This document shows positions 2,160 through 23,584 of a stretch of DNA of 24,000 nt, in pieces. Position 1 is the stretch's first letter, and every line of letters begins with the position of its first letter. The DNA is from an uncultured Acetobacteraceae bacterium (GTDB taxonomy: Bacteria; Pseudomonadota; Alphaproteobacteria; Acetobacterales; Acetobacteraceae), in contig CAIXDS010000071.1 of assembly GCA_903918195.1 (NCBI GenBank), forward strand, positions 1-24,000, read 5' to 3'. Below the pieces are notes generated by a model that ran no database searches, was not told the DNA's origin, and saw only the letters and a list, made by a program, of their open reading frames with translations. A program made the translations under genes and the position numbers.

Positions 2160-3107
2160 TCACTGCTTGGTGCTCGATATTATGGCCGGAACTTGTGCCG
2201 CGTTTTGTAGACGGGACAGTTCCGCCTGCGTTTCTGCCAGGGCATTTGCCTCTGAGCGCGCCACTTCCTCGGCGTTCACGAGGACGAGTTGCTTGCGCAG
2301 CGGAGGAACACAGCCATCATCCAAGTCGAGACCTAGCCGGGTCTTCACGTAATAGCCGAAGCACGTCCGTACGTTCATCTCCATCAAACCGTTGCTCATG
2401 CGGTGCTCAGCTTCCAATGCGCGCTTGGCCGATTCTTCCAAGGCTGGATTGGCTGCCAGGCGGAGGGTCATAATCGTGTGCCAGCCACGGTCAGCGTTGG
2501 AGTCAACGTCGCAGTCGCGTTCCCCTGTGACGCCGGTTATTCGTGACACGACGAAGTCCCGAAAATCATGGTGGGTCGCGCAGTAGGCCCTGACGTGCCA
2601 GCGGTCGCCATCGTCGGCGAATGCATGTGGGGCTATCCATCGGACTGTCGGTTGGGGGTGGGAGAATGACTGATAGGTAACCTCGATAAGCCTCCGTTCG
2701 CGCACGGCCGCGAGCAAGCCCTGCAGAACGACGTCGTCCAGCTTCCTATCCGTACGTGGCACCGCCCGCTCAGCGGTCACGCCAGCGGCCCAAGGCGGCC
2801 TATCGGCACCTTGCTGTCGTTTCTCGGTTCTTTCGAGATCGGCCAGCACATCCATTGCGGACGGCAGGTGAAGGACAGGCCGGAAGCCCGTCCCACGGAG
2901 ATAGGTTTTCCGGCTTCGGTCATAGACTGCGTTGTCCGGCGCAAGCTCGACGTAGCGCGCCAGGTCCACCGAGGCCTGCGGGATCGATATCCCGAAGTGC
3001 CTCACTAGGTCCGACCGGTTCACCCGGCCGGCCCAGAACAGGCACGCGTCTAGGAAAGAAAGCCTCCTTCCCACCCCCCAACGCAGACCGACTCCATCAT
3101 CCGACAT
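2160..3107 (-). CDS. WYL-domain transcriptional regulator, CapW/BrxR-like (wHTH-WYL-C-terminal extension)
   Basis: ORF 2160-3179 trimmed to ATG 3107, which has AGGGGAG (complement of 3114-3120) 6 nt upstream. wHTH: 'RLSFLDACLFWAGRVNRSDLVRHFGISIPQASVDLARY'. WYL domain: 'IEVTYQSFSHPQPTVRWIAPHAFADDGDRWHVRAYCATHHDFRDFVVSRI'. Divergent from the Ubl operon. Confidence 0.85.
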   Translation of the reverse strand: MSDDGVGLRWGVGRRLSFLDACLFWAGRVNRSDLVRHFGISIPQASVDLARYVELAPDNAVYDRSRKTYLRGTGFRPVLHLPSAMDVLADLERTEKRQQGADRPPWAAGVTAERAVPRTDRKLDDVVLQGLLAAVRERRLIEVTYQSFSHPQPTVRWIAPHAFADDGDRWHVRAYCATHHDFRDFVVSRITGVTGERDCDVDSNADRGWHTIMTLRLAANPALEESAKRALEAEHRMSNGLMEMNVRTCFGYYVKTRLGLDLDDGCVPPLRKQLVLVNAEEVARSEANALAETQAELSRLQNAAQVPAIISSTKQ

Positions 3108-3140
3108 GTGCAACTCCCCTGCCCGCGAATCTTGCGTCGG

Positions 3141-3178
3141 TGAGTATTGAAAGTCTATGAATCTAGAAACTAGACTCA
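3141..3178. promoter_or_regulatory. AT-rich nested palindromes overlapping a sigma70-like promoter in the divergent WYL/Ubl intergenic region (candidate WYL operator)
   Basis: TCTAG (3162-3166)-aaa-CTAGA (3170-3174); AGTCTA 3152-3157 pairs with TAGACT 3171-3176; TGAGT 3141-3145 pairs with ACTCA 3174-3178. A possible -35 TTGAAA (3147-3152) and -10 TAGACT (3171-3176) have an 18-nt spacer and point toward 3269. This is the only AT-rich patch in the 161-bp intergenic region. Confidence 0.45.
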
Positions 3179-3268
3179 TCGGTCAGATGGGTGCATACTC
3201 CCCCGTGTCGCGAGTCGTGGTGCCCTTGGTGGGCTGCGGCGGTGCGGACATTGGAACGGAGAGCGCAG

Positions 3269-4357
3269 ATGGACTTCGCAGATGGACACCATGATGACGC
3301 GATAAGCAGGATCGTCATCGACGGGCAGGAGCATACGGTGCATCGGCACCGGATGTTGGTGGCTGAGATATTGGCTCTGGTCGGTCGGTCCCCGGAGGAA
3401 TGGGAACTGGATGCAGAGCTTGCTGGTGGAGACCACGTTACTCTCGGCGGCGATGACGAGGTGAAGTTGCGTGAGGGCGGTATCGTCCGGTTCCACACGC
3501 GCCGCCGGCACCATCATCATCATGGGGATCATTGCGAACTCACCGTCGTCGTGAACAGTGAGCCGATCGTTTTGGATGTGCGCCGTTCGACGCTCCTTTC
3601 TGCCGTGGTCACCGAGGTTCTGGAAAAGGCGAAGCCGACGGGCAGGCCCGACGACCAATGGGAGATGAAGACCGAGGCCGGACAAGTGCTTGATCAGGCG
3701 CTGTCGCTTGAAGCCGCCCATGTGGAGTGCGGGGCAACGCTCTACCTTTCCCTGAAGGCTGGTGCCGCCGGCGAGGCGATGACCGAGCTTCTGGTTGATC
3801 CAGAGGTATCACGGGCGAAATTCTACGAAGAGGTGCGGGATTACCAGCGGGTGCAGGACGCTATGATCCGCCGTGGCCAATGGCTGATCACCGCCGAATA
3901 TCCAGAGGTTTTCGTCGTGTTTGGTGCCCCAAACAGCAATTATCCCACCTGGGCTTTCGGCGCGGTCCTGGACTTCACAAACTACGACCTGTGGCCCGCG
4001 TCAGTGAATCTGGTGAACCCCTTCACGAAGGTGCCCTATCGGGCGGCCGAGATGCCGGCGCCAGCCTGGCTTCAGCGCGTGAACATGAGCACCAACATTC
4101 CTGGCGAGACGCCTACCAACGTCATGTCCGTGGACAGGCTAATGCAGGCTCAGCGGCCGGAAGAAGTTCCCTTCCTGTGTCTGCCTGGCGTGCGGGAGTA
4201 TCACGCGCATCCTGCCCACACCGGAGATAGTTGGTTGCTTCGCCGGACATCTGGGGAAGGCAAGCTGTACAGGCTGCTGGATGTCTTATTTCAATATGGT
4301 TCTGCGCCGATTTGTGGTCTGCATGTGCAGCCCGCCATGAACATCGTCCCGCGGTGA
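3269..4357 (+). CDS. Tandem ubiquitin-like (two beta-grasp repeats) fused in frame to an E2/UBC-like domain (BilA-BilB-like fusion)
   Basis: ORF 3191-4357; start set at ATG 3269 (GGAGAG 5 nt upstream). Repeat 1 is 'ISRIVIDGQEHTV...VKLREGGIVRFHT'; then a His-rich linker; repeat 2 is 'ELTVVVNSEPIVLDV...WEMKTEAGQVLDQ...GATLYLSLKAGAAG', ending in Gly168. The E2-like part is 'YPEVFVVFGAPNSNYPTWAFGAVLDFTNYDLWPASVNLVNPFT' with a candidate catalytic Cys304 in 'EEVPFLCLPGV' (codon 4178-4180). 362 aa. Confidence 0.8.
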   Translation: MDFADGHHDDAISRIVIDGQEHTVHRHRMLVAEILALVGRSPEEWELDAELAGGDHVTLGGDDEVKLREGGIVRFHTRRRHHHHHGDHCELTVVVNSEPIVLDVRRSTLLSAVVTEVLEKAKPTGRPDDQWEMKTEAGQVLDQALSLEAAHVECGATLYLSLKAGAAGEAMTELLVDPEVSRAKFYEEVRDYQRVQDAMIRRGQWLITAEYPEVFVVFGAPNSNYPTWAFGAVLDFTNYDLWPASVNLVNPFTKVPYRAAEMPAPAWLQRVNMSTNIPGETPTNVMSVDRLMQAQRPEEVPFLCLPGVREYHAHPAHTGDSWLLRRTSGEGKLYRLLDVLFQYGSAPICGLHVQPAMNIVPR

Positions 4358-4908
4358 CACTTCTGCACCGGTTGTTCGGCGGGAAAGACCCTTTGGGCGA
4401 TGTGCCACGGACCGGGCTCGAATCCGTGGACCGAGTCTTACTGCCCCAATCCTGCGCCGATGCAACGCAGGATCACCTGCGCGCGGCCGGCCGAATGGGT
4501 AACGAGGGATTGGCTGTCTGGTCAGGGGTCCAGGAAGGATCGACGTTCCGCGTGCTGACTGTAACCGCACCACGCCAGCGGGCAGTGAAGAGCGGACAAG
4601 GCGTGTGCGTGGTGCTGGACGGAGACGCTCTACACGGCCTCAACGTCTCGCTGCACAAGGCCGGCGAAAGGCTGTTCGCGCAAGTCCATTCCCATCCCGG
4701 CCGTGCTTATCATTCACCGATGGATGACCAATACGCCGTGGTCACGGCCGCGGGTGGGCTATCGATCGTAGTTCCCGACTTTGCCGTTCGGCCGTTTTCT
4801 GTCGGGGATTGTGCGATCTACCGCCTGACCCGCTCCGGCAAATGGACCGTGATGCCGAAACGGCGGGCGGAGGCGCTTATCTACGTCGTCAAGGACCAGA
4901 CTCCATGA
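4354..4908 (+). CDS. JAB/MPN (JAMM) metallopeptidase, BilC-like deconjugating/processing enzyme
   Basis: ORF 4231-4908; start at GTG 4354 overlapping the upstream TGA (GTGA 4354-4357). The JAMM motif H-x-H-x7-S-x2-D is 'HSHPGRAYHSPMD' at 4687-4725, with an upstream Glu in 'GNEGLAVWSG'. 184 aa. Confidence 0.85.
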   Translation: MTLLHRLFGGKDPLGDVPRTGLESVDRVLLPQSCADATQDHLRAAGRMGNEGLAVWSGVQEGSTFRVLTVTAPRQRAVKSGQGVCVVLDGDALHGLNVSLHKAGERLFAQVHSHPGRAYHSPMDDQYAVVTAAGGLSIVVPDFAVRPFSVGDCAIYRLTRSGKWTVMPKRRAEALIYVVKDQTP

Positions 4909-6434
4909 ACGTCGCCAGCTTCTTCGACCGGAGCGCGACTGCGGTTGCGCAGGTGCTGGGCGAATGCGATTCTGACCGGCTGAGGCTGAAGCTGTCGGGA
5001 TTGGCCGTGGCGCTCGCCTTTGACAGCAAGGCGGTGCGGGCTTCTGAGGGCGTGGCGACGCTGGAATTGGCGACCGACCTACTGGCGCGTTTCTACCCTG
5101 GACTTGGCCTTATCCCATTGGATGACGATCCAGCGACAGTCGCAATGGTAAGCAAATTGGGCGAAGCGGCGGGTGCAATACATCCGGGAATCGAATTGAA
5201 ACCCGAGATGTGTACGGTGTGTTGCTGCCTGATCGTCGGCAGCCGCGTTCCGGCTCTAGGCGTTCCCACCATATTCATCGGTTCGCACGGCTGGAACGCG
5301 ATACTGGACCCAAGCCAGCCAGTCGGAAGCCTGGACACGCTCAACCCGTTCGGCGCCGCGGCCGCGGCATGCGTCGGCGTCGCCAACGCTTTTCGCTTTG
5401 CCTTTGCGGATCTGCTGCCAGACACCCGACCGGATCGAGCCCTCGAATTCGATGTTCTCCATCATCGGCTTGGGCGCTGCTCGGTCGGCCCGGCATTGCC
5501 GGACCGAGTCGATATCGACGGCACCCACCTTGTCGGCCTGGGTGCCATTGGCCGCGCGGCGGCATGGTCGCTTTCCCATGCTCCGGCGCTGCGCGGCCGT
5601 CTCGACGGGGTTGATCACGAGGCGATCGAGGATTCTAATCTACAACGATATGTGGGGGCGACGCAGGCCGATGCTGCCGCTGGCGTGTTGAAGTGCCAAT
5701 CCGTGATGGCGATGTTTCGCGGCTCCGGCGTGCAGGTCGTGGAGCACCCGCTCACATGGGGCCAGTATCTGCGGTCCCGGGCTGATTGCCGTCTTGATCG
5801 GGTGGCCGTCGCGCTGGACACGCCGGACGACCGGATCTCCCTTCAAGCGGCGCTACCCCGCCGGATTCTGAACGCTTGGACGCAGCCGGGTGATCTGGGT
5901 GTCTCCCGTCATGGTTTCACCTCCGGCCCGTGCCTCGCCTGTCTTTACCTGCCAGAGCGTGAGGTGCCGAGCCTCTCCCACCTTGTGGCGGATGCTATTC
6001 GCTTGCCCGAGTTGGAAGTTCGCGGCCTGCTGCATGCCGGCTTTCGAGTAGACGCCGCGTTCTTGGGGCGGGTCGCGCTCGCAGCAGAGGTGCCGCTGGA
6101 AGCTTTGCTACCCTTTGATGGCCTGCCTCTACGCTCGTTCTACACGAAGGCGGTATGCGGCACGACCTGGTTCGGTACCGGCGCCGGCGGCGACCGGGGT
6201 GCAATGGCGGTGCCGATGGCATTCCAGTCCGCGCTCGCCGGTGTTCTGCTCGCCGTCGAAATCGTCGCCGACGCCGTGATGTTGCGCACAACGGCGATGG
6301 CACCGCTCACAAAAATCAATTTACTCAAGCCGCTCGGAAGCCGTTTGGTGGAACCGGCCGCAAAACATAAGTCTGGCCAGTGCATCTGCCAGGACGACAC
6401 ATATCGTGCGGCCTATCAGCGGAAGTATGCCTAA
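4905..6434 (+). CDS. E1-like ThiF/MoeB-family adenylating enzyme with an inactive N-terminal lobe and an active C-terminal lobe (BilD-like)
   Basis: ORF 4809-6434; ATG 4905 overlaps the JAB stop (ATGA 4905-4908). The Rossmann motif 'LVGLGAIGRAAAW' (GLGAIG 5535-5552), 'DHEAIEDSNLQRY' and 'ALDTPDDR' lie in the C-terminal half. Cys pairs 'CLACLY' and 'GQCICQ' look like a zinc site. A helical insertion 'LSHLVADAIRLPELEVRGLLH...FYTKAVCGTTWF' carries a candidate catalytic Cys. The N-terminal ~220 aa lack a nucleotide motif. 509 aa. Confidence 0.85.
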   Translation: MNVASFFDRSATAVAQVLGECDSDRLRLKLSGLAVALAFDSKAVRASEGVATLELATDLLARFYPGLGLIPLDDDPATVAMVSKLGEAAGAIHPGIELKPEMCTVCCCLIVGSRVPALGVPTIFIGSHGWNAILDPSQPVGSLDTLNPFGAAAAACVGVANAFRFAFADLLPDTRPDRALEFDVLHHRLGRCSVGPALPDRVDIDGTHLVGLGAIGRAAAWSLSHAPALRGRLDGVDHEAIEDSNLQRYVGATQADAAAGVLKCQSVMAMFRGSGVQVVEHPLTWGQYLRSRADCRLDRVAVALDTPDDRISLQAALPRRILNAWTQPGDLGVSRHGFTSGPCLACLYLPEREVPSLSHLVADAIRLPELEVRGLLHAGFRVDAAFLGRVALAAEVPLEALLPFDGLPLRSFYTKAVCGTTWFGTGAGGDRGAMAVPMAFQSALAGVLLAVEIVADAVMLRTTAMAPLTKINLLKPLGSRLVEPAAKHKSGQCICQDDTYRAAYQRKYA

Positions 6435-6489: not shown

Positions 6490-7026
6490 TTGGCCAACCC
6501 GCTGCTCTCAGAGGAGGAAGCCGAAAGGTATTTTCAGCGGCATGAAATGCTATTGGAGTTTTCCCGACTTTTTGACTATGGCGAGGCGAGCGACCGCGCC
6601 GTTGCAATAGTCGGCCCGGCATTTCTTGATACGCTGTTGAGCGAAGCCCTTGTCGAATTCATGATTGAAAATAGGACTGAGGTAAACAAACTGCTCCAAC
6701 CGGATGGGCCACTTGGTACATATGGAAGCCGAGTGACTGCCTGTTATTGCCTTGGACTGACCGGAAAAATTGTCACCAGTGACCTGAGACTTGTTGGCAA
6801 GATCAGGAACCGCTTTGCACACGACATCCGCGCGGACTTTTCCGATTCGAAGATCAGCCAGTGGTGCCGGGCACTCCGCTGGCACAAAGAATTCTTCGCA
6901 GTGCCACCGCCCGATGCAACCGACAGGGACTTGTTCCAAGTTGGAGTCAACCAGCTCGTCTCGCATTTGACCGCCATTCCCGGTGTGGCGCGCCTCAGCA
7001 AGCGCTCTGAGGTCCTCCACACATAG
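6490..7026 (+). CDS. HEPN-superfamily protein, MtlR-like (candidate RNase effector)
   Basis: ORF 6490-7026 (TTG start; AGGAGA about 9 nt upstream; start uncertain). 'GPLGTYGSRVTACYCLGLTGKIVTSDLRLVGKIRNRFAHD' carries the HEPN R-x4-H motif 'RNRFAH' (6805-6822) in the MtlR-type context. Sampled 60-nt blocks are about 47-53% GC, against about 70% in the adjacent E1 gene. 55-bp gap after E1 with no terminator seen. Confidence 0.7.
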   Translation: MANPLLSEEEAERYFQRHEMLLEFSRLFDYGEASDRAVAIVGPAFLDTLLSEALVEFMIENRTEVNKLLQPDGPLGTYGSRVTACYCLGLTGKIVTSDLRLVGKIRNRFAHDIRADFSDSKISQWCRALRWHKEFFAVPPPDATDRDLFQVGVNQLVSHLTAIPGVARLSKRSEVLHT

Positions 7027-7363
7027 TCGGGGTAGCTTGAGCCCGGACGCCGTGCGCCAGATCCTGGGGTCACCACACGATTTTCTCAAAATCGCACGCT
7101 AAGCCGAAAGTCCTTTGGTTTTAGGGTATTGCGCAAACGATCGTGGCTCATACTGGATTCTAGGGTGGTGGAGATCCAAGTGTTTTCAGTGCGTTGTAGA
7201 CGCTTGCACCTGCCAGATGGTCACCTTGCGGCTACCCCGAGCGCCGTGGAGACGCAAACCAACCGGAAAACTGATGCTGCGTTGCCCGCAACCCTACGCT
7301 AACAAATTGATTTTACGGATATTACTACCGCCCCGAAACCCAGGATGAGCCACGCCTTCTGCA

Positions 7364-7397
7364 CCGTCCCCGCTATCCTCGCCCGTCCCCGCTATCC
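7364..7397. repeat. Two 15-bp direct repeats with 19-bp spacing upstream of a small ORF (candidate operator/promoter element)
   Basis: 'ccgtccccgctatcc' occurs at 7364-7378 and again at 7383-7397, 60-95 nt upstream of ATG 7459. Confidence 0.4.
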
Positions 7398-7458
7398 ACA
7401 TGGGGCGCTCCGATGGCTGTGGCCGCACATTGCGAGCGGCAGCCAGAAGGAAACCGCC

Positions 7459-7722
7459 ATGAGCCGAGTCCGCCCGACCGGGGTCCGGATCACCCTGTCG
7501 GGAACCGACCCGGTCGCCATCGAAGCGGCCGCCGACGAACTCAAGCATCGGTTCGCCGCCCGCTTCGCGGTGACCGGACGGCGCTGCTCCCCCGTGTCCG
7601 GAAAGGCGGCCAGGGGAGATCTAACGGTTTGGGGCACACTGCTGGTGGACGTTGCCATTGACCTGGACGCCTCGGTCATGGACCTGCTCGATCGCCTTTA
7701 CGCCGGGCAAGCCGGCGCATGA
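7459..7722 (+). CDS. Small hypothetical protein (87 aa), faint S10/NusE-like pattern
   Basis: Internal ATG 7459 of ORF 7345-7722 with GAAGGA 7 nt upstream. Third-codon positions are mostly G/C, as in confident genes here. No recognisable catalytic motif. Confidence 0.4.
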   Translation: MSRVRPTGVRITLSGTDPVAIEAAADELKHRFAARFAVTGRRCSPVSGKAARGDLTVWGTLLVDVAIDLDASVMDLLDRLYAGQAGA

Positions 7723-8081
7723 GCCTGCCTAAATCTTCAGCATTCCGTGCAACGCGCAGAAATTCAAAGAAGAATTTGTCTAACGCGCCATTTCCCCTCG
7801 AAGTTATCAACAGCTTTGGGGGATATATCCGGTCCAGCGTGGCAGCAGATCATCGCGGTGCGGAGCGGGAGGGGCGCGACGGCGCGCCGGACGCGCCAGT
7901 GCGACACCACGCCAGAGGGACTGGTTGCGTTTCCGTGAGCCTGTATGGCATTCCGGACCACCCCGAAACCTGCCGCACGGCCACCAGCGACGACTGTGAT
8001 CCGCCAGGGTCCGCTTCCGTGGTTCTTCGCAGAACGAAAATCATCGCGGACGCCGCCGGCCAGGATCGATCCGAGCAGTAG
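7719..8081 (+). CDS. Hypothetical protein (120 aa), doubtful
   Basis: ATG 7719 overlaps the stop of the previous ORF (ATGA 7719-7722). The 5' third is AT-rich with atypical codons. An antisense ORF (7764-8099) has similar coding statistics. No motif recognised. Confidence 0.2.
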   Translation: MSLPKSSAFRATRRNSKKNLSNAPFPLEVINSFGGYIRSSVAADHRGAEREGRDGAPDAPVRHHARGTGCVSVSLYGIPDHPETCRTATSDDCDPPGSASVVLRRTKIIADAAGQDRSEQ

Positions 8082-8288
8082 CGGCGAGGCGACCTGCATG
8101 GTCGTTCCGGAATCCTCTGTGGGTCACGAAGATGGTTTCCATACTGGGAGCTTCTGCGACTTCAAGCAGGTGGCCACGTCAGGATCTGTCGTCGTTACGT
8201 GCTATCTGCTTGGGTAAGCCAGACAAGACAGGGAGACAAGCTGAGCCATGAAGCCGATTCCCGCCTCGAAGTCGTGTGTTGCTCGCCC

Positions 8289-8906
8289 ATGACGAACCTT
8301 TGCCCGCGTAGCGGGCACGTCGTGCTGCTCGGCGACTCGGTTTTCGACAATGGTGCCTACGTCGCAGACGGGTTCGATGTCGCGACGCAACTGCACCAAG
8401 CGCTGTCGCCAGCTTGGCGGGCCACGCTGGTTGCTCGGGACGGGGCTGTTGCCGGCGATCTTCCAAACCAAGTCGCACAGCTGCCGGCTGATGCCAGCCA
8501 TCTACTGGTGAGCGTCGGGGGCAACGATGCGCTGGGACACCTGGGCGTGCTCGATGAGCCGGTCGGCTCGGTGGCCGAGGCCCTCGAACGGCTCGCCAGC
8601 ATTCGTGACGCCTTCCGCGCCGATTACCTCGACGCCGTCACCGCCGTGCTGGCTCTCGGCCTGCCGACCTGGCTTTGCACCATTTACGAACCACGTTTTC
8701 CGGAACCAGCGATGCAGCGCGCTGCCATCGTCGCGCTGTCCATCTTCAACGACATCATCACGCGCGCCACGGCAATGCACGGGGTGGACCTGCTCGATTT
8801 GCGGGTGCTGTTCAACGAGGACGGGGACTACGCGAACGCGATCGAGCCCTCTGCCCATGGTGGCGAAAAGATCGCTCGGTCCATCGTGCGCGTGCTGCTG
8901 GCCTGA
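8289..8906 (+). CDS. SGNH/GDSL-family hydrolase
   Basis: ORF 8199-8906 trimmed to ATG 8289. Block I is 'VVLLGDSVFDNG', block III is 'LLVSVGGNDAL', and the C-terminal block V-like segment is 'AIEPSAHGGEKIA'. 205 aa. Confidence 0.8.
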   Translation: MTNLCPRSGHVVLLGDSVFDNGAYVADGFDVATQLHQALSPAWRATLVARDGAVAGDLPNQVAQLPADASHLLVSVGGNDALGHLGVLDEPVGSVAEALERLASIRDAFRADYLDAVTAVLALGLPTWLCTIYEPRFPEPAMQRAAIVALSIFNDIITRATAMHGVDLLDLRVLFNEDGDYANAIEPSAHGGEKIARSIVRVLLA

Positions 8907-9008: not shown

Positions 9009-9440
9009 TCATTCCTCACCCGGCAACGGTACGTGCCGAACGCTCCGGTAATGGTCATCAGGCAGGATCGTTTCCCCGTGTGCCACGATGCCAAAGCAGT
9101 CTGTGATGAGGCGGACGAACCCCGGCTGGTGCAACTGCCTGTCGGCCCGGATGACGAAGCGCCGTGCCACGGAATCATAGAGAACACGGCCACGTGGCCA
9201 TTCCTCGTATTCGGACCAGACTGGAGCCGTTGGAATTCCATCTCCGCGGAGTGCACGCGCGCCACGGCGGGCCAGCCGCGACCAGTGCTCAAGATGGCCC
9301 GTGTCCACGGTCAGCATGTCGCCATAGGCCTCGGCCCGTTCCAGCGGGACGGCCAGTGCGATGACGGTCGATTTTCCGCCCTCCTCGACCACCCAGAACG
9401 GGCCGACCATCCCGCCTCCGTCTGGTTTCGCCCCGTTCAT
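9009..9440 (-). CDS. Hypothetical protein (143 aa) translationally coupled to the DUF2779 gene
   Basis: ORF 9009-9503 trimmed to ATG 9440, which overlaps the upstream stop (ATGA on the minus strand, 9440-9437). G/C-rich third positions. Conserved-looking segments are 'GPFWVVEE', 'SEYEEWPRGRVLYD' and 'RFVIRADRQL'. Family not recognised. Confidence 0.65.
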   Translation of the reverse strand: MNGAKPDGGGMVGPFWVVEEGGKSTVIALAVPLERAEAYGDMLTVDTGHLEHWSRLARRGARALRGDGIPTAPVWSEYEEWPRGRVLYDSVARRFVIRADRQLHQPGFVRLITDCFGIVAHGETILPDDHYRSVRHVPLPGEE

Positions 9441-10921: not shown

Positions 10922-11193
10922 TGATTGCGTCCGAGGTGGATGCAGAATCCTCCACGCCCCGATTGTTGTCGGCAACCGGAAATCGTCGCGCCTGGATGTG
11001 ACCACGTCCGCTTCTGTCGTGGCGGTGGCGTATTCTTTCGGAACGCCGCAGTGACAGGAGGCCACCGAACCGGCTATGACACGCTCCATGCCATGAGCAC
11101 CTGACCCGAGACCTCTTTGACGCTCAGGAATCAGCCCGCACTCGGACTCTGTCCGGACGGTCTGGTCCGCGTGTGTTCATCGAGGAGGTCCCC

Positions 11194-11517: not shown

Positions 11518-11525
11518 CCGATCCC

Positions 11526-16314: not shown

Positions 16315-16336
16315 GCGCTCAGGACGACGGGCGGAT

Positions 16337-19300
16337 CTATTCCGGATCAACCCGCACCATCCGCCCCGACGTCATGAACACCACCAGCCCCCTGGCGGCA
16401 CCAGTGGCGCGGAGATAGGTGCGAACCTGCGCGGCGTACCCGGCGATCGCCGCCGCGTCAGGCGCCACATCGCTCTTCCAGTCGATCACCATTTCCGGCG
16501 CACCGCCGGCCGACAAGGCCACGGCGTCGGCAATGCCGAGAACCACTTCCTCACCGGCGTCGCCGGCCGCAGCGGCGCAGACGTTGAATTCCGGCACCAG
16601 CGAGGCGCGAACGGCGTTGACATCCGGCAAGGCCAGGGTGCGGAGCACGGACGCTGCGAGTTCGGCCGGATCGGCGTCGTCCACCGGCTCGGGACAGGTG
16701 GCCGCGAGTTCGGCGGCACGCACGCGCAGTGCGGCCTCGGTGTCGCCGGTCTCGCCCGTCAGCACCTCCTCCATCAGCTTGTGCAGCACCAGGCCACGCC
16801 CACGCCCGCCCTGGGGCAACGGCGGCGGTTCCGGCTGGTCCGCGGCGTCCAGCACCACCGGCTCCGGGTCCGCCTCGCCGCTTTCCGCCCGGCTCGGCGT
16901 CACCCGCACCAGGCGGGTGGCGCGGGCGGTGATCAGCCCGGCCTCGGTCGTGAAGGTGGCCGCGTCCTGGCCGTTCGCCTCCTCCGTGTGCACCGGCAGA
17001 ACCGAGGGCGGCAGCCCCGCCTGGTCGAACGCCGGCAGCGTCCGGACCTCAAGCGGCACTGCGGCGCTCCAGGCGGAGTCCGAGAGCTTCGCTGCAAACC
17101 GCGGCAACAGCAGCAGGTCGCGCGCCCGCGTCGCCGCCACGTACCACAGGCGCTGGCGTTCCAGGCCCATCTGCGCGGTCTCGTCCGCCAGCGCCGCCGC
17201 GCAGCCGGGCGGGTCCACGCCCAGGATGCGGGCATGCAGCAGCCCGGTGGCGCGATCGAGCACCGGGGGGCGCGGACCGAACACGCCGCCTGATGTGTTC
17301 ACCGGGATCACCACCGCCCATTCCAGCCCTTTGGCTGCATGCATGGTGATCAGCGAGACCGCCTCCTGCTCGGCGTCCGGCCGCGCTTCCTGTGTTCGGG
17401 TCTCTTCCTGCCATTGCGTGCGTATCGCCCGTGCGAAGGCGCCGAGGCCGCGAGTCTCCCAGCCGCGGGCCATCTCCAGGAAGGCATCGACGTTTGCCAG
17501 CGCCCGTTCGGCACCGCGGCCGAAGCGCTGGCGCAGTACCGGGCGGACCCGCATTTCCTCGACCGCCTGCGCCAGCAGGACATAGGGCGTGGTGGCGCGC
17601 GCGCGGCGGGCCAGGCCCTGCAAAATCTCCAGTGTTTCCCTCAGCACCGGCTCGGCGACGTTGACGATGGGCAACCATAGGTTCAGCCGCGCCGGCCTTC
17701 CATCGGCGGCGGGCGGCACCGCTTCCAGCGCGTCGAGCAGCGCTTCCTCCGTCATGCCCACCAGCGGCCCTCGCAACAGCGCGCCGAGCGCCAGCGTGTC
17801 GCGCGCATCCGCGAGTGCCCCGGCCAGCGCGATCAGGTCCTGCACTTCCTGGCGGCGGAAGAACCCTTTTCCCGCCTGCGTCGCCACCGGCAGGAAGCGG
17901 TCCTCAAGAGCGCGCTCGTAGCGCCAGAGATCGGTACCGGTCGGGGCCAGCAGGGCGATGTCGCCGGCCCGGCAGGGGCGCGTCGTTCCGTCCGATCCGC
18001 GCACGGCGAAGGCGCCGATCAGGCGGCGGCAGGTTTCCGCCACTTGGTCCGCCTCGGCGTCGCGCAGCGAAGCGGCGTTTGTCTCGGCAGCTTCAATGTC
18101 CAACGCACAGACGCTGGCGCGCTCGTCGAGCGCCGCCGCGGTGCTGAACAGCGGCGCAAAGCCCGGCTGGCCCGGCGCGCCGAGGGGAGCGGCGAAGCGT
18201 TCGTTCACCCATTCCAGAATCGGCTCCACCGAGCGGAAGTTGCACCCGATCGCCAGCACATTGTCAGGCGCGCCGGCGCGCAGCGCGTCGCGCGCGCGAA
18301 CGTAGGTCGCGACATCGGCGCCACGGAAACGATAGATCGCCTGCTTGGGGTCGCCGACCAGGAACAGCGCCCCGTCGCGCAGCCGCCAGTCGGTCCAGGG
18401 CGCGTCCGTGTGACCGGCCGGCGCGTCGCCGCAGAGCCGCCACAGGATTTCGGCCTGCACCGGGTCGGTGTCCTGGAACTCGTCGACCAGCACGTGGCGG
18501 AACCGGCCGGCCAGCGCGGCGCGCACGGCAGGGTTTCCGGCCAGCAGGTCGCGGGCGCCGTGCAGCAGATCGTCGAAATCGAGCAGCCCGGCGGCGCGCT
18601 TGGTTTCTTGGAAGCGGTCAACGATTGCTTGCAGGTCCGGCGCGAGCCGGGCCAGCAGCGTGCCTGCCGCGGCAGCCCGCAACTCGGCGTGGCCGGTTTT
18701 GCAGGCGGCGTAGAGAGCTGTGGCCTCGTCGTTCAGACGATCGGCCTCAGCCTTGCTGCCTCGGCCGCCCAGCGTCGTCTGCCAGGCGCCTTTCTTGCGA
18801 TAGGCTGCGAACGCACCCGCTGCCGTGCTGCAGGCCTGAGGGACCGGCAGGTACAGCAGCGCGAGAAGCCGCGCGATGTCGCCGGCAGCACCGTCCGGCA
18901 GCCCGGTCAGCAAATCCTCGAGCCCCTCGGCAACTTCCTTGATGAGAGGCTCGCAGATCGGCACGCCATCAACGAAGACCTGCAACGCTGCCACCGCTTG
19001 CCGCAGCGCCGCACAGGCCCCCTCCAGGTCCGGCGCAGGCGGCAGAGTCGCGCCCCGATGCTGGCGCAGCATCTGCGCGAAGCCGGCGATCAGCTCCTCG
19101 GGTTTTCCTTCGTCGAGCAGGAACAACGCCGCCAGCGCATCGTCGCCGGCGGTATCGCTTGCCAGCCGTTCGCGCAGCACCTCCTGCACGGTCTCGTCGA
19201 ACAGCAACGCCGCCTCGCCGGCATCGGCCACGGTGGCACCGGGGTCGGTCCGCGCCTCCACCGGCCAGGGAGTCAGCAACATGCGGCAGAAGCCGTGGAT

Positions 19301-19663
19301 GGTTGTGCAGGCGAGCGCATCGATCCGCGACGCGGCCTGCATCAGCGCCGCGTGTTGCGCCGCGGTCAGCCCCTTTGGCAGCGCCGCTGCCAGATCACGC
19401 GGCACCTCGTTGCGGCAGAGCGCCATCACGAAGCGCTCCACTCGCTCACGCAACTCGCTCGCCGAGGCTTCGGTGAAGCTGATCGCGGCGATGCTCTCGG
19501 GCGCTCGCCCGGCCGCGAGCAGCAAGGCGATGCGCCCGGCCAGCACCGAGGTCTTTCCCGATCCGGCTCCGGCCTCGACAAGCAGCGTGGCATCAAGATC
19601 GGTGAGCGCCCGCAGCCGGCTGGCGGCGTCCGATCGTGCGAGAGTGGCAACGCTTGACATCAC
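16337..19663 (-). CDS. AddA-like UvrD/Rep-family helicase with a C-terminal RecB-type nuclease
   Basis: 1108-aa ORF. Walker A 'EAGAGSGKTSVL', motif II 'VLVDEFQDTDPVQ', motif III 'LFLVGDPKQAIYRFRGA', 'CNFRS', 'ITMHAAKGLEW' and 'LWYVAATRARDLLLL'. C-terminal nuclease 'GIADAVAL...EMVIDWKSD...YAAQVRTYL'. Start is GTG 19663 or ATG 19660, both overlapping the upstream stop (19660-19662). Confidence 0.9.
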   Translation of the reverse strand: MMSSVATLARSDAASRLRALTDLDATLLVEAGAGSGKTSVLAGRIALLLAAGRAPESIAAISFTEASASELRERVERFVMALCRNEVPRDLAAALPKGLTAAQHAALMQAASRIDALACTTIHGFCRMLLTPWPVEARTDPGATVADAGEAALLFDETVQEVLRERLASDTAGDDALAALFLLDEGKPEELIAGFAQMLRQHRGATLPPAPDLEGACAALRQAVAALQVFVDGVPICEPLIKEVAEGLEDLLTGLPDGAAGDIARLLALLYLPVPQACSTAAGAFAAYRKKGAWQTTLGGRGSKAEADRLNDEATALYAACKTGHAELRAAAAGTLLARLAPDLQAIVDRFQETKRAAGLLDFDDLLHGARDLLAGNPAVRAALAGRFRHVLVDEFQDTDPVQAEILWRLCGDAPAGHTDAPWTDWRLRDGALFLVGDPKQAIYRFRGADVATYVRARDALRAGAPDNVLAIGCNFRSVEPILEWVNERFAAPLGAPGQPGFAPLFSTAAALDERASVCALDIEAAETNAASLRDAEADQVAETCRRLIGAFAVRGSDGTTRPCRAGDIALLAPTGTDLWRYERALEDRFLPVATQAGKGFFRRQEVQDLIALAGALADARDTLALGALLRGPLVGMTEEALLDALEAVPPAADGRPARLNLWLPIVNVAEPVLRETLEILQGLARRARATTPYVLLAQAVEEMRVRPVLRQRFGRGAERALANVDAFLEMARGWETRGLGAFARAIRTQWQEETRTQEARPDAEQEAVSLITMHAAKGLEWAVVIPVNTSGGVFGPRPPVLDRATGLLHARILGVDPPGCAAALADETAQMGLERQRLWYVAATRARDLLLLPRFAAKLSDSAWSAAVPLEVRTLPAFDQAGLPPSVLPVHTEEANGQDAATFTTEAGLITARATRLVRVTPSRAESGEADPEPVVLDAADQPEPPPLPQGGRGRGLVLHKLMEEVLTGETGDTEAALRVRAAELAATCPEPVDDADPAELAASVLRTLALPDVNAVRASLVPEFNVCAAAAGDAGEEVVLGIADAVALSAGGAPEMVIDWKSDVAPDAAAIAGYAAQVRTYLRATGAARGLVVFMTSGRMVRVDPE

Positions 19664-22305
19664 GCGGCCTCCCAGATCTCGGCCGCCGGACCGAGCAGGA
19701 CGGCGGCAGCTTCGCGCTTGCGCTCGAAAACACTGCCTTGTTGGGACGGCAAAGCGAAGGCCAAGTCGTCGTAATCGCCTCCGGTGTCAGGCCCGGGCAC
19801 AGCCAGCCCGGCCTGCAGGGCCGCCAGGCTGTGGTTTAGCGCGCTCACCAGCGTGGCGAGCGCTCCGTCGGGATCGGGGAGGGGATAGTACGGTGTCTCA
19901 GATCGCGGATACAGAAGCGCGGCCTCGACCTCCGTTTCCGTCCCAAGCAGCGCGCGCACCGCGGCAATATACAGGCATCGCTGCAGCTCCCCGCCGCCGG
20001 CCAGCACGCGGCCGGCGATGTCGCGCGGCGGGTTGCCGGTCTTGAAATCCACCACCCGCGCTTTGCTGCGGTTGCCGGCGAGATCGAGCCGATCGATCTG
20101 TCCCGTGAGGGCAAGCGACGTCCCGGGGATTTGCACCGGCTGCGCCGCATCCCAGGGCATCGCGCCCTCCGGCGGCTCATCGACGTTGAACGGCACTTCG
20201 GGCCAGGTGGTCTGGCCGTCCAGGGCGCGAAGCGGATGAGAGAGCGCATCGGTTGCGAGCGCGGCGGCCTGGTCGAGTGTCCGCCGCCAAAGCAACGGTG
20301 GCGGCAGAGGCATGCTCGCCTGCCAGCGCAGGCCGATCCGGCCGGCTTCGCCGGCGACCGCAGCGGCGATCTGCTTCGGCTCGTCGCCGGCCGCGTCTTC
20401 CGCTGTCGCCAGCACGCGGAGAGAAGCGGCGATGATCTCATGCGTGAGCGTGCCGAAGGTGAGGGGATCGAGGCGGAACGGCTCGGCCTCTTCGTCGGGC
20501 GCCCGCAGGCCGAGCGCATACTGCCAGACGAAGCCGAGCGGATTGCGCAACAGCTTCTTCAGCGAGGTCGCGGAGTGGTGCCGCGCCAGCACGCGTTGCA
20601 CGGCCGGGTGCCCTGCACGGACCAGACCGTCATGCGGCGTGATGCCTGGGGAGAGCCAGTCGCGCCATACAGCGTCGGCTGCCTGCGCCCGCGGCTTCCT
20701 GGCGAACTCGGCCGGGCGCGCCATCAGCCGGTCAGCCTCGCTCATGGCATGCGAAGGCACGGCGGCGCGGCGCAGGAAACGCGCGCCGGCATCGGGCAGT
20801 AGCGGCGAGCGGCCGAGCAGGCGGCCGGTGGCATCACGGCGGCTGCACGACAGCACCAGTTCGCGCGCCGTTCCGCCGCAGATGCTGGCGAAGTCGCGCC
20901 GGTCGGCCTCGGCGACCGGCAGCACGTCGAGCACGGCGGCGGGGACCAGGCTGGTAGGCAGCAGCGGGTCCTCCCGGCTCTGCCGCGGCCAGGACTGTGC
21001 GTTCAGGCCCAGCAAGCGCACAAACGGACGCGGTGCGGCGGCCAGTTCGGCGGCCGGCCCCCAGATGATGCTGCAGGCCGGATCGGCGGGATCGGTCACA
21101 CGCAGGGAAGAAAGCGACCGTTCGATCGCCGCGGCACTTTCGCGGTCGAGGGCGCGGCGCCACAGCGTGCGGGCGAGGCCGCACAGGATTGTTTCGCCGG
21201 CTTCGGCAGCCGCCTCCGGCCTACGATGCAGCAGCTCGACAACCGGCATCAGCACGGCGGCCACCGCCGCGCCATCCTCGCCGGCGTCGTCGCAGACAAT
21301 CTGCCAGCGGGCCGGGGTTCCGAGCGGCGCACCCTCTGGGAGCACGCGCCGCCAGGTTTCCGGCAGGGCGTGCAGCGCTCCGCCGGCCGGCGCGGCCAGC
21401 GCGACAAGGCGGCGCAGTCGTGCCTGCGACAGGCCCCGCAGCAGGATGTCGGCCAGCGCGGCGGCGGTCTGGCCCTCGCGCGTGAACAAGGCCGGCCGGC
21501 CATGGGCGAAATGCAGCTGCAGGTTGGCGTCGGCCACCGCCGCCTCGACGATGTCGTCGAAGGCGGCCGGCGAGGCGGCAACGATGGCTATCTCCTCGGC
21601 GCGCGCCGCACCGCTGGCAAGCAGGGCGCGTGCCCAGCGCAGGGCCTCGATCACCTCGTGCCGCGCGGTCGCGCAGCTCACAACTGTTGGCGTTGCTGCG
21701 GTGCTGGTGGTCCGGCGGATGGCGACTTCCGTTCCGTCCAGCCAGGCCGGCACCTCGCGCGCCCCGGCGTGCCACGAGACTGGCACATGCGATCCGAGCT
21801 CCAGCAGAAGACCCTGCCAGACCGGCTCCAGCGCCGTCATGCCGTGCACCTCAACCGGGCCGGTGACAACAGGCGCATGGGCGAGCCGCCCCCGTGCCGC
21901 CGCCGCGAGTTCGGCCGGGCGCAGCATGCCGGGCGGGAGGCGCTTCAGCACGTCGGCCTCAAGCGTCGCCAGCGTGGCGAAGCGCGGATGCTCCGCCGCG
22001 CGCGCCTGGAGGTCGATGCAGGCGCGCCAGGCCTTGCCGAGGGTGGACGCGAGCGCGAGTTGCAGACCCGGCAGGTCGCCGATTGGCGCAAGATCCCCAA
22101 GCGGTGCCGCGGCGGGATCCTGCAGCACCTCGCCGAGCGCCGCGGCGAGCGCCTCCGCATCGATCGCGCGCAGAAAGCCGCCAGCCAGCCGAGCCGCCAG
22201 CCCTGGCATGCTCATCACCTGCACGCCATGCTGGCCAGCGCGGGCGGCCTGGAGCCGCGCCTGATCGGCGGCGAGGCGGCCATAGGTTACGATGGTACAG
22301 CGCAT
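19660..22305 (-). CDS. AddB-like PD-(D/E)xK nuclease subunit (no P-loop, no Fe-S cysteine cluster)
   Basis: ORF 19660-22344; start placed at ATG 22305 (GGAGA about 9 nt upstream), alternatives 22338/22344. C-terminal RecB nuclease motif 'GQIDRLDLAGNRSKARVVDFKTG...ELQRCLYIAAV'. Long helicase-like but Walker-less N-terminal body. Immediately upstream of, and overlapping, the AddA-like gene. Confidence 0.8.
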   Translation of the reverse strand: MRCTIVTYGRLAADQARLQAARAGQHGVQVMSMPGLAARLAGGFLRAIDAEALAAALGEVLQDPAAAPLGDLAPIGDLPGLQLALASTLGKAWRACIDLQARAAEHPRFATLATLEADVLKRLPPGMLRPAELAAAARGRLAHAPVVTGPVEVHGMTALEPVWQGLLLELGSHVPVSWHAGAREVPAWLDGTEVAIRRTTSTAATPTVVSCATARHEVIEALRWARALLASGAARAEEIAIVAASPAAFDDIVEAAVADANLQLHFAHGRPALFTREGQTAAALADILLRGLSQARLRRLVALAAPAGGALHALPETWRRVLPEGAPLGTPARWQIVCDDAGEDGAAVAAVLMPVVELLHRRPEAAAEAGETILCGLARTLWRRALDRESAAAIERSLSSLRVTDPADPACSIIWGPAAELAAAPRPFVRLLGLNAQSWPRQSREDPLLPTSLVPAAVLDVLPVAEADRRDFASICGGTARELVLSCSRRDATGRLLGRSPLLPDAGARFLRRAAVPSHAMSEADRLMARPAEFARKPRAQAADAVWRDWLSPGITPHDGLVRAGHPAVQRVLARHHSATSLKKLLRNPLGFVWQYALGLRAPDEEAEPFRLDPLTFGTLTHEIIAASLRVLATAEDAAGDEPKQIAAAVAGEAGRIGLRWQASMPLPPPLLWRRTLDQAAALATDALSHPLRALDGQTTWPEVPFNVDEPPEGAMPWDAAQPVQIPGTSLALTGQIDRLDLAGNRSKARVVDFKTGNPPRDIAGRVLAGGGELQRCLYIAAVRALLGTETEVEAALLYPRSETPYYPLPDPDGALATLVSALNHSLAALQAGLAVPGPDTGGDYDDLAFALPSQQGSVFERKREAAAVLLGPAAEIWEAA

Positions 22306-22396
22306 TATTTCGGGTCTCCGAGGTGCGACGGCGCTCATTCCCACGATTTCTTAGCATGATCCGGCATCCGAACCGCTGCAGCCGGCATCGATATTC

Positions 22397-23584
22397 TCAC
22401 GCCGCGCTGAAGCGCTTTCGCTTAACCCAGACGAAGCCGTCACCCTTTGACAGGATGGCAACATCGATCGGTCCTCCCACGGTTTCTTTCTCACCGGCGC
22501 ACGCGTGCGCCCGGAAGGCGGTCAGGCTGACGAGAGCTTCCGCCATCTCGGCCAGGTCATGCCGCGGCAGCGCCGCAACGGCTTGCATGAAGGGGCCGGA
22601 GTGTTGCTTCGAAATTTCCTCCTGCAGGCTCGTCTCGAACCTTTCGACAGCGTCCGGGGCGTCGCCGCCAGTTGCCTTCTTATGCGGCTTGGATACCTTG
22701 AGGCTGTCCGCCATGAGCGCCGGCAGACTGTCGGCCAGGTCGGGGTGGATTCCCCGGATGATCATGTCGATCGTCTCGCGCTGCGCGAAAGGAATGATCA
22801 TCGCCGTGTCGTCATGCGTGATCCGGGCATGGTCAACCAGGTGCAGCTTGAGGCGACCCTTCACGACCGGGCCGACGCGGCAGAAGAGCAGGCCAGGAAA
22901 AGGCTCCGCCTCGCCCATGCCGGCGATGACCAGCCCAGAGAACGGACCGGGAAAGTTGGCGCGCGAGAGACACAGCCGAAGCGTCGTGCGCAGGCCGTCA
23001 CTGATGTCCCCCGGCATTACGTCCGGGCCGAAGACGGCGTGTTCCGCCTCGTCCAGAGCGGCGCCGTAATCGGCGATCACCGCGTCCGGGAAGCCGCTGT
23101 CGACGCGTTCCAGCAGCGGATATTTTTCCCAGATCGCATGATCCTCGGCGATAAGACGCCGCAGAACGTCGTGCGGGTCGCCGTTGTTGCGGCCGCGATG
23201 CTCGCCCAGCTTTTCCTTCCAGGGCTGGGCGTAGAGCCCATCCCACAGATCGCGTGCGAGGCTGGCGAAGCGTGCTAGTTGCAGCGCCTCCGGGAACATC
23301 GCCGTCGATCTTTCGATGATGGCTGCGAAATCCGCGAGGTATTCCGGCAGCGTGTCGTAGTGCCGGGCGCCGAGGTGCCGGTGGTAGCCGGCGACAATCG
23401 TTTCCCACGGCACGTCCATCAGATCGGCCGAGCCGAACGTCATGATGCCGACGGGCGCTGAGGGCGCCAGTTGCAGAAGCTTTTCGGCGTTGTGGTATAT
23501 TTTCTCACCCTCGCCGAGGGTGACCGCGCTATCCGCCGCCAGGGCGATCCCGCGCGTGTTCATCACTGCAACCTCACAGGTCAT
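22397..23584 (-). CDS. Proteasome-beta/HslV-like Ntn (T1 family) threonine peptidase homologue with a large internal insertion
   Basis: ORF 22397-23599; second ATG 23584 has AAGGA 6 nt upstream and gives N-terminus Met-Thr. 'MTCEVAVMNTRGIALAADSAVTLGEGEKIYHNAEKLLQL' parallels E. coli HslV '[38 protein letters not shown]' (from memory). This places Thr1, Asp17 and Lys34 (expected 33). Later beta-fold segments are 'SGLVIAGMGEAEPFPGLLF' and 'ETVGGPIDVAILSKGDGFVWV'. 395 aa, against about 180-240 aa for HslV/20S beta. Confidence 0.7.
   Translation of the reverse strand: MTCEVAVMNTRGIALAADSAVTLGEGEKIYHNAEKLLQLAPSAPVGIMTFGSADLMDVPWETIVAGYHRHLGARHYDTLPEYLADFAAIIERSTAMFPEALQLARFASLARDLWDGLYAQPWKEKLGEHRGRNNGDPHDVLRRLIAEDHAIWEKYPLLERVDSGFPDAVIADYGAALDEAEHAVFGPDVMPGDISDGLRTTLRLCLSRANFPGPFSGLVIAGMGEAEPFPGLLFCRVGPVVKGRLKLHLVDHARITHDDTAMIIPFAQRETIDMIIRGIHPDLADSLPALMADSLKVSKPHKKATGGDAPDAVERFETSLQEEISKQHSGPFMQAVAALPRHDLAEMAEALVSLTAFRAHACAGEKETVGGPIDVAILSKGDGFVWVKRKRFSAA

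Follow-up and report, generated by a model that had tools for sequence, protein, structure and literature searches.

Does a bacterial locus that holds analogues of the tagging, unfolding and degrading tiers of the ubiquitin-proteasome pathway encode one such pathway? The question is raised by a stretch of 24,000 nucleotides (nt) from an uncultured Acetobacteraceae bacterium (assembly GCA_903918195.1, contig CAIXDS010000071.1, positions 1 to 24,000), hereafter the window, in which an operon for conjugation of a ubiquitin-like protein (Ubl), a tandem AAA+ ATPase and a homologue of the proteasomal threonine peptidases lie within 21 kb of each other. An earlier note on this DNA had raised cooperation of the three tiers as a hypothesis and had named accretion of unrelated defence modules as the alternative. 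Comparison with related loci does not bear out the first of these ideas and upholds the second only in part: the Ubl operon is independent, whereas the ATPase and the peptidase are linked by a common promoter box and by synteny. The best explanation, to which a probability of roughly 0.7 can be attached, is that two independent modules stand side by side, one a Bil operon with a CapW-type regulator (module A, 2160-6434), the other a DriD-like regulon that includes the ATPase, the proteasome homologue and nucleases (module B, 9437-23676), both being probably induced by single-stranded DNA (ssDNA).

Genomic associations and a shared promoter box

Pattern-seeded scans supplied the loci, whose annotation relied mainly on tblastn searches with the window proteins, a procedure that distant Bil-like or AAA+ homologues could escape. 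The collection comprises 140 peptidase loci (81 genomic, 3 metagenomic and 56 viral), 83 ATPase loci and three Bil loci on rhizobial plasmids. Homologues of the Bil E1, JAB or Ubl-E2 proteins were detected by tblastn at 0/140 peptidase loci and 0/83 ATPase loci, and neither ATPase nor peptidase is present near the Bil operons of the three plasmids (0/3). This lack of co-occurrence makes the Ubl tier independent of the ATPase and the peptidase. Consistent with this, the published census of Type II Bil operons (Chambers et al.) reports neither ATPase- nor peptidase-type partners. The operon has its own CapW-type regulator, a DriD-type box is absent from its promoter spacer (3180-3268), and its G+C content is 0.60-0.64 as against 0.68-0.74 for the region of the ATPase and peptidase.

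Association between the ATPase and the peptidase is confined to a subset of loci. Among the 140 peptidase loci the ATPase is present in L001, L004, L012, L010 and L170 only, with none in the 56 viral loci (L174-L229); within the close clade of the peptidase it occurs at 3/30 loci by a strict criterion, or at about 6/31 if split or truncated copies and L114 are included. A recurring set of genes characterizes this clade, namely peptidase, WYL-WCX regulator, AddB-like, AddA-like, tandem AAA+, DUF2779 and PDDEXK_4, and their order varies. In the window AAA+, WYL and PDDEXK4 on one strand converge on AddA, AddB and T1 on the other; L001 has AddA, AddB, PDDEXK4, further open reading frames (ORFs), WYL and AAA+ on one strand with T1 divergent; L004 and L012 have AddA, AddB, WYL and AAA+ on one strand, again with T1 divergent; and in L168 T1, WYL, AddB and AddA form one operon. 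The whole set also recurs at positions 1-20882 of L170 in a copy riddled with insertion sequences (IS), where AddA and AddB are fragmented and the peptidase is split into 293 and 105 residues, followed by DUF2779, ATPase, DriD-like and GmrSD genes. Together, these combined loci (the window, L001, L004/L012, L168, L170 and L114) represent at least four gene orders and three peptidase subclades, and ATPase and peptidase still co-occur where the proteins are as little as about 45% identical and where the genes have been rearranged.

The neighbour most often found with the ATPase is a WYL-WCX gene, which lies directly 3' of it in 30/58 loci with enough sequence, and in close relatives DUF2779 and a small ORF, o114, precede it. 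Toxin-antitoxin pairs, IS elements and HEPN-like, GmrSD and ADP-ribosylglycohydrolase (ARH) genes are further neighbours at the family loci. An obligate two-gene system was considered and rejected, as clustering of the neighbours at 81 peptidase loci yielded no universal partner.

The regulator encoded after the window ATPase matches DriD of Caulobacter crescentus over its full length (8tp8_A and 9pfq; residues 12-336 against 19-341) and PafC only distantly (5e-7), and it comprises a winged helix-turn-helix (wHTH), a three-helix bundle, a WYL and a WCX domain. Caulobacter DriD is activated by ssDNA bound in the WYL domain and recognizes the box ATACGAC-N7-GTCGTAT near the -35 position, a relaxed form of which (CGNC-N7-GNCG) is found in 68/69 alphaproteobacterial driD promoters. 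It controls repair genes in Caulobacter, where AddAB generates the ssDNA signal.

Motif scans of the window were uninformative in this respect. Exact Caulobacter half-sites, CGAC-N7-GTCG with at most one mismatch, are not enriched (16 found, 22.5 expected), the relaxed motif is not enriched in intergenic DNA (4/42), and an excess of sites with an N6 spacer falls mostly within coding sequence and is probably an effect of composition. The shared signal emerged only when orthologous promoters were compared. All loci examined, 2.22 Mb in total, contain 49 copies of the oriented box CGTCC-N5-TGACG. About 26 of these lie immediately 5' of ATPase genes (38-73% identical to that of the window, some of them no more than 38-43%), nine directly 5' of peptidase genes with three more farther 5', one 5' of the o76-PDDEXK4-AddB-AddA operon of L001, and a handful before other genes. 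The palindrome CGTC-N7-GACG has a background frequency of 0.039 per kb, which amounts to about 0.007 for each upstream region. When ATPase and peptidase promoters are aligned, they share the box, followed after about 10 nt by YAT(C), in flanks that are otherwise unrelated. The sole exact CGTC-N7-GACG site of the window is the one before the peptidase (23662-23676), and the box on the ATPase side ends 47 nt 5' of the ATPase ATG. L170 carries four boxes, one of them 5' of a SpoU-like methylase gene. The box is a candidate operator common to the ATPase and peptidase units, presumably bound by the DriD-like protein, which, if it behaves as its Caulobacter homologue does, would sense ssDNA and activate rather than repress.

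Two further sites in the window precede the gene of a GDSL-type hydrolase. The first, at 8090-8104 (CGACCTGCATGGTCG), is a perfect pair of Caulobacter-type half-sites; the second, at 8177-8191 (CGTCAGGATCTGTCG), is followed after 10 nt by CTATCT, like the ATPase and peptidase promoters. This hydrolase gene may belong to the DriD-like regulon.

Components of the two modules

The gene content described in the earlier note stands: Ubl-E2, E1 and JAB genes with an E1 of Bil type, a double-ring classical AAA+ protein with an unfoldase-type pore loop and no HbYX-type motif at its C-terminus, and a T1 Thr-peptidase homologue, laid out in separate transcription units on both strands with nucleases interleaved. 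The description of the ATPase as 'Cdc48-style' applies to its tandem D1-D2 body, which resembles Cdc48, NVL and Afg2, but not to its N-domain. Coordinates and supporting matches of the features are collected in Table 1.

The operon of module A can be identified as a complete Type II BilABCD ubiquitination-like operon, a type already described as an anti-phage system, because its products give full-length matches to the BilA, BilB, BilC and BilD structures of Ensifer aridi and because its genes follow the Type II order. That order is given by Chambers et al. as Ubl, CEHH/E2, deubiquitinase (DUB) and E1; the same authors recognize 'CEHH' as a diverged E2 and Pfam 'Prok-E2_C' as part of a eukaryote-like multidomain E1, so that the E2 label on the E1 is historical. 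The window reads Ubl-E2-DUB-E1, the published order, except that Ubl and E2 are fused. The BilA part of the first ORF (about 3293-3772) contains two beta-grasp domains, matches 8u38 (5.5e-14 over residues 35-194) and ends in ...KAGAAG194, which aligns with the C-terminus of the M. brachiatum Ubl (8u38). The BilB part (about 3779-4357) matches 8tyz_C (1e-38 over residues 201-381) and Metal_CEHH (2.8e-44), its ...FLCLPGVREYHAHPAH... aligning with the catalytic Cys/His region of BilB. At the junction (about 3770-3800) the product reads ...AAG-EA-MTELLVDPEVSRAKF in a single frame with zero stop codons; in the three rhizobial plasmid operons Ubl and E2 are separate overlapping genes. Separate translation of the E2 could be permitted by an internal ATG at 3779, and the JAB peptidase BilC, which keeps the HSHPG motif, presumably trims the Ubl after Gly194. 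The ATG of BilD overlaps the stop of BilC, and the BilD match extends over the full length of the E1 (residues 34-540 against 2-506 of the structure), which combines an N-terminal PF14459 domain with an adenylation domain.

Divergent from this operon is the gene of the CapW-type regulator, matched to CapW over residues 34-326. The two share an 89-nt spacer with a palindrome at 3201-3220, a possible operator. CapW is described in the literature as an ssDNA-sensing repressor of defence operons, and at 15% of Type II Bil operons CapH/CapP regulators are found (Chambers et al.). On the Mesorhizobium plasmid of L172, a second Ubl system (628-2694), consisting of a multiubiquitin-domain protein and a ThiF-family E1, is separated by 8 kb from the Type II Bil operon and adjoins a RES-Xre toxin-antitoxin pair.

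Each of the two AAA modules of the ATPase possesses Walker A, Walker B, a sensor-1 Asn and an Arg pair. In the family alignment GPPGTGKT, DEAED, N367 and RR378-379 are invariant in D1, as are GPPGxGKS, DEADS, N603 and RR614-615 in D2. The second module is a classical AAA domain (PF00004, 2.8e-34), nearest by sequence to Afg2, NVL, Rix7, Cdc48 and p97 (1e-20 to 1e-14). It alone carries an aromatic-hydrophobic-Gly pore loop, FLGG in the window and F/Y-V-G-G in relatives; a canonical pore loop is absent from D1. From these motifs both ATPase sites look competent and the D2 loop looks to be of the translocating type. An AlphaFold2 model with a predicted local distance difference test score (pLDDT) of 79.4 aligns in Foldseek with Rix7, Afg2, Cdc48 and p97 across both rings, over about 530-580 columns, and shows an all-helical N-domain with one hairpin. 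Neither CDC48_N nor CDC48_2 was matched in a Pfam scan, and no Cdc48_N, UBX or ubiquitin-binding fold was detected in the N-domain by Pfam scan or in the model. Membership of the Cdc48/p97 family is rejected on the helical N-domain and on a TIGR01243 score of 56 bits against a cut-off of 803. The last conserved residues are VGF, 7-13 residues before the end, beyond which the C-terminus is unconserved and variable (...GDCDAA, ...ARAAG, ...MGTAG), with neither an HbYX nor a GQYL docking motif. In PHROGs the family is phrog_10401.

Identification of the peptidase required structure prediction and Foldseek, as searches by sequence (Pfam, NCBIfam, PADLOC and phmmer against the PDB) gave zero matches. 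The AlphaFold2 model (pLDDT 85.6; predicted template modelling score, pTM, 0.82) finds no PDB matches other than Anbu and 20S beta subunits (probability 1.00, E about 1e-4, TM(target) 0.42-0.54), and its best match in the viral library BFVD comes from a phage and carries the annotation of a proteasome beta subunit. Among family members of 27-100% identity, Thr2 is conserved in 131/132, Asp18 in 132/132 and Lys35 in 132/132. The threonine always directly follows the initiator codon in the 132 relatives, and there is therefore no propeptide; a Shine-Dalgarno-like AAAGGA lies 5' of the ATG at 23584. Two helical insertions, at about residues 60-207 and 269-361, enlarge the protein to its full size. 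On the evidence of the model, the protein is a proteasome-fold N-terminal-Thr peptidase homologue with a Thr1/Asp/Lys triad. The family (phrog_5990 in PHROGs) is represented by at least 1,948 proteins in the collection searched and by 197 matches in 185,579 species genomes, and relatives of 27-35% identity are carried on 56 viral or prophage contigs from IMG/VR, often close to the contig end.

A survey by Fuchs, Alva and Lupas (2021) described 22 new families of proteasome homologues, including the 'PMI' type. In PMI-3 and PMI-4 one insertion follows H1/H2 and another lies between H3/H4, PMI-4 being broadly distributed and present in phages; genomic context and co-occurring AAA+ proteins were stated as not found, and insertions at such sites were argued to hinder ring and double-ring assembly. 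The insertions of the window peptidase sit at these same two places, and the protein is probably of the PMI type, PMI-4, an assignment drawn from the published descriptions rather than from reference sequences. Several other genes were observed beside peptidase genes: an ADP-ribosylglycohydrolase-like gene about 33 nt 3' in L009, L015, L024, L026 and L031, a protein with a HEPN-like RNxxxH motif 5' in L001 and L005, and, as further recurrent neighbours, genes of NERD-UvrD helicases and PD-(D/E)XK proteins.

The AddAB-like pair encoded with the peptidase is not the housekeeping enzyme, an identity rejected by the NCBIfam cut-offs. Its AddA-like subunit scores 266 bits with addA_alphas, for which the equivalog cut-off is 861, and its AddB-like subunit has no match to addB_alphas and just a weak one to TIGR03623 (35 bits). 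Homologues of the latter (47-48% identical) lie beside the peptidase or the ATPase in L004, L012, L165 and L168. A DUF2779 nuclease gene stands beside the ATPase at 6-10 of the ATPase loci and beside the peptidase at 4-5 loci, and the block is kept in close relatives. Matches to o114, for which family scans returned nothing, were found by tblastn 5' of the ATPase in 16 loci. At the other end of the ATPase-WYL operon, the PDDEXK_4 gene has a G+C content of 0.52 within a region of 0.68-0.74; it occupies the same position in L085, L135, L165 and L001, and at other loci GmrSD or unknown genes replace it. This end of the operon is thus variable, and the PDDEXK_4 gene looks like a recent insertion or swap.

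The gene map of the window was built from the ORF listing and from family scans (Pfam, NCBIfam, PADLOC). Its G+C content is uneven, at 0.58-0.66 across 2-11 kb and 0.68-0.74 across 11-22 kb with a drop to 0.52 at 15-16 kb. No tRNA genes were found across the window, and scans of it for consensus promoters and terminators gave uninformative output. Between 6490 and 8081, besides the MtlR-like ORF, there are two small overlapping ORF pairs (7345-7722 and 7719-8081, with antisense alternatives), and family scans gave no matches for the MtlR-like ORF or for these pairs. A further ORF, o101 (11514-11819), would overlap the ATPase start; being Arg-rich and having zero tblastn matches in other loci, it was not accepted as a gene. 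The 298-nt spacer before the ATPase more likely holds the DriD-box promoter and a 5' leader than o101.

Table 1. Genes and promoter boxes mapped in the window, with the matches that support them
Feature	Position	Strand	Support
Methyltransferase	108-677	+	
Tyrosine recombinase (integrase), borders the Bil module, context only	959-2050	+	Pfam Phage_integrase 6.5e-14; XerC/D-like NCBIfam matches weak, far under cut-off
CapW/BrxR-family wHTH-WYL regulator	2160-3179	-	PDB CapW 9c5g 1.1e-52, BrxR 7t8k 2e-30; Pfam WYL 1.5e-13
BilA-BilB in-frame fusion	3269-4357	+	Pfam Multi_ubiq, DUF2604, Metal_CEHH; PDB 8u38, 8tyz_C
BilC, JAB/JAMM deubiquitinase	4402-4908 (start codon inferred by alignment to E. aridi BilC)	+	PDB 8tyx_B 5.9e-43; PADLOC BilC 2e-15
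BilD, multidomain E1	4905-6434	+	PDB 8tyz_A 5.7e-123; Pfam Prok-E2_C, ThiF
MtlR-like ORF	6490-7026	+	
GDSL-type hydrolase	about 8249-8906	+	
DUF2779 (RecB/Cas4-like) nuclease, divergent from the ATPase operon	9437-11089	-	Pfam DUF2779 5.5e-33
o114, small conserved ORF 5' of the ATPase	11173-11517	+	tblastn matches; no family match
DriD-type box variant CGACTAGGTTTGACG	11755-11769	+	Same position as the box before about 26 ATPase genes
Tandem (type II) AAA+ ATPase: helical N-domain, D1, classical AAA D2	11816-13939	+	
DriD-like wHTH-WYL-WCX transcription factor, start overlaps ATPase stop	13920-15005	+	PDB DriD 8tp8/9pfq 5e-71; Pfam WYL, WCX
PD-(D/E)XK nuclease (PDDEXK_4)	14977-16314	+	Pfam 3.1e-15; PADLOC PDC-S26 8.5e-23
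AddA-like UvrD-family helicase	16337-19663	-	Pfam UvrD-helicase 2e-50
AddB-like PD-(D/E)XK nuclease subunit, end overlaps AddA-like start	19660-22344	-	Pfam PDDEXK_1 1.3e-20
Proteasome-fold N-terminal-Thr peptidase homologue, 395 residues, first gene of the T1-AddB-AddA unit	22397-23584	-	
DriD-type box CGTCCGGATTTGACG	23662-23676 (about 85 nt 5' of peptidase ATG, then TAATAT)	-	

Proposed mechanism and rival explanations

In module A, the Type II BilABCD system would be held under a CapW-type WYL repressor. Its Ubl would be made as a Ubl2-E2 fusion from which BilC would release it by trimming after Gly194; BilD would then adenylate and thioesterify the Ubl and hand it to the CEHH E2 for conjugation, as in the Ensifer aridi system. 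Module B would be the regulon of the DriD-like wHTH-WYL-WCX activator encoded right after the tandem AAA+ protein. If the homology with DriD is a guide, binding of ssDNA to the WYL domain would lead the dimer to bind the CGTC-N7-GACG box at the -35 place and so switch transcription on. The putative units are ATPase, driD-like and PDDEXK_4 in one case and T1-like peptidase, AddB-like and AddA-like in the other, with the GDSL hydrolase as a possible addition. The helicase-nuclease and the other nucleases would work on DNA, the ATPase and the Thr-peptidase on proteins; the roles of these last two, and any contact between them, are conjectural. What links them is co-regulation and synteny, and physical cooperation is structurally doubtful.

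A three-tier pathway, in which Bil would tag proteins with Ubl, the tandem AAA+ protein recognize and unfold them and the T1-like peptidase degrade them, has in its favour that all three parts are intact within 21 kb and that the CapW-like and DriD-like regulators both belong to ssDNA-sensing WYL families, so that the units may be co-expressed. Given zero co-occurrence in either direction, regulators, operators and G+C that all differ, a helical ATPase N-domain with no detectable Cdc48_N, UBX or ubiquitin-binding fold, no HbYX motif and a published Type II census without such partners, it is extremely improbable. A narrower proposal joins the AAA+ protein and the T1-like peptidase in a physical unfoldase-protease machine, which would be a proteobacterial counterpart of HslUV, Mpa-20S or Cdc48-20S, would be induced by ssDNA and might, for example, clear DNA-bound or phage proteins. 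The common operator and recurrent synteny fit this, as do the classical translocating pore loop of D2, two competent-looking ATPase sites, a strictly kept catalytic triad, and Cdc48, NVL and Afg2 as nearest folds. However, the constant partner of the ATPase is the WYL regulator (30/58) and not the peptidase (1/83), at most loci and on phages the peptidase stands alone, its insertions occupy the very sites at which Fuchs et al. expect hindered ring assembly, and the unconserved ATPase C-terminus offers no HbYX motif; such a machine is therefore regarded as unlikely.

Pure accretion would make all units, ATPase and peptidase included, unrelated residents of a defence island. Variable neighbourhoods of both families, mobile-element genes close by and heterogeneous G+C are what it would predict, but it leaves unexplained why the same 15-bp oriented box stands before two non-homologous genes across dozens of loci and why their co-occurrence survives to about 45% identity and through rearrangements, and little credence is given to it. 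Whether module B could instead be a housekeeping, SOS-independent DNA-repair regulon with a true DriD and a true AddAB, rather than a conflict system, turns on a different set of observations. Its regulator is strongly homologous to DriD, which in Caulobacter controls repair genes and takes its ssDNA signal from AddAB; on the other side, AddA falls far short of its cut-off (266 against 861 bits) and AddB has no addB match, the families are rare, patchy and present on prophages, and toxin-antitoxin pairs, IS elements and defence-type genes flank them. The housekeeping alternative is thus a doubtful one. An anti-phage role, or a role against mobile genetic elements under stress, is favoured over housekeeping repair because of the sporadic distribution, prophage carriage and conflict-type neighbours, a specialized repair role being less likely.

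The preferred reading, two independent modules of which the second is a DriD-like regulon, has points to answer as well. The peptidase is found at just one of the 83 ATPase loci (L114), and it is essentially solo outside one clade, as in the clade of 30-35% identity and in the viral copies. Since a typical member of either family has no member of the other close by, membership of the regulon is clade-specific. The box before the window ATPase is a two-mismatch variant, the half-site differs from that of Caulobacter, and the counts of boxes overstate the number of events because orthologous promoters are not independent. A defence role for module B, as opposed to repair, is a putative assignment. 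Finally, the two modules probably answer the same signal, so that a functional hand-off in this one organism is possible.

Comparison with known systems

The data do not point to a bacterial ubiquitin-unfoldase-proteasome pathway. With the Type II BilABCD system of Ensifer aridi TW10 (Chambers et al.; PDB 8tyz, 8tyx), module A shares four activities in the same order and strong full-length matches to all solved subunits; it differs in having the Ubl, with its two beta-grasp domains, and the E2 in one reading frame, and its regulator is a CapW-type WYL protein instead of the CapH/CapP of published Type II operons. To a known defence family it thus adds a small variation, the fusion of Ubl with E2 and control by CapW.

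In module B the peptidase has in common with PMI-type homologues the beta-like core, Thr1/Asp17/Lys33, the lack of a propeptide, the insertion sites and a broad, patchy spread that includes phages, whereas its subclade has a genomic context and an AAA+ neighbour, neither of which was found in the 2021 survey. An orphan family of proteasome homologues thereby gains a regulator (a DriD homologue), a recognizable operator and recurrent partners (a tandem classical AAA+ protein and an AddAB-like helicase-nuclease), and becomes a testable system. The ATPase resembles Cdc48/p97, NVL/Rix7 and Afg2 in its tandem D1-D2 arrangement, in the pore loop of D2 and in that D2 sequence and whole-body fold are nearest to theirs; it differs in a helical N-domain in place of a double-psi barrel, in a divergent D1 without a canonical pore loop and in the lack of HbYX. 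Like AddAB and AdnAB, the helicase-nuclease pair consists of a UvrD-type helicase and a PD-(D/E)XK nuclease in two subunits encoded by overlapping genes, but it scores far under the equivalog cut-offs, and its genes follow that of a proteasome homologue in one operon, downstream of a WYL box.

The Caulobacter DriD regulon agrees with module B in a full-length regulator and in the geometry of the box, two 4-bp half-sites around a 7-bp AT-rich spacer, situated at -35 with a -10-like element after it. In module B the half-sites read CGTC/GACG, those of Caulobacter CGAC/GTCG; the regulator gene comes second in an operon that begins with the tandem AAA+ gene; and the putative targets are the AAA+ protein, the proteasome homologue and the AddAB-like pair, as against didA, recA, recJ, bapE and dnaG in Caulobacter. 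In this way the theme known from DriD and PafBC, of WYL factors that sense ssDNA and govern genes for DNA processing and proteolysis, is extended to a new gene set. More speculatively, and with rather low probability, an ssDNA-sensing DriD-type activator in Alphaproteobacteria and relatives might turn on a Cdc48-like AAA+ unfoldase, a PMI-type homologue and a dedicated AddAB-like pair, with ATPase and peptidase acting jointly on protein at damaged or invading DNA, such as DNA-protein adducts, nuclease inhibitors or phage replication proteins. If such joint action were true, an 'orphan' proteasome homologue would for the first time have a functional context and an AAA+ partner, and the system would be convergent with the PafBC-Mpa-proteasome and Cdc48-proteasome axes of the DNA-damage response. 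The actinobacterial PafBC and Pup-proteasome locus likewise places an ssDNA-sensing WYL-WCX regulator beside an AAA+ unfoldase and proteasome genes; it differs from the window in that the match to PafC is distant, that Pup, Dop, PafA and a 20S alpha/beta pair are missing here and that the ATPase is not Mpa/ARC, so the parallel is best described as one of analogy, not of membership.

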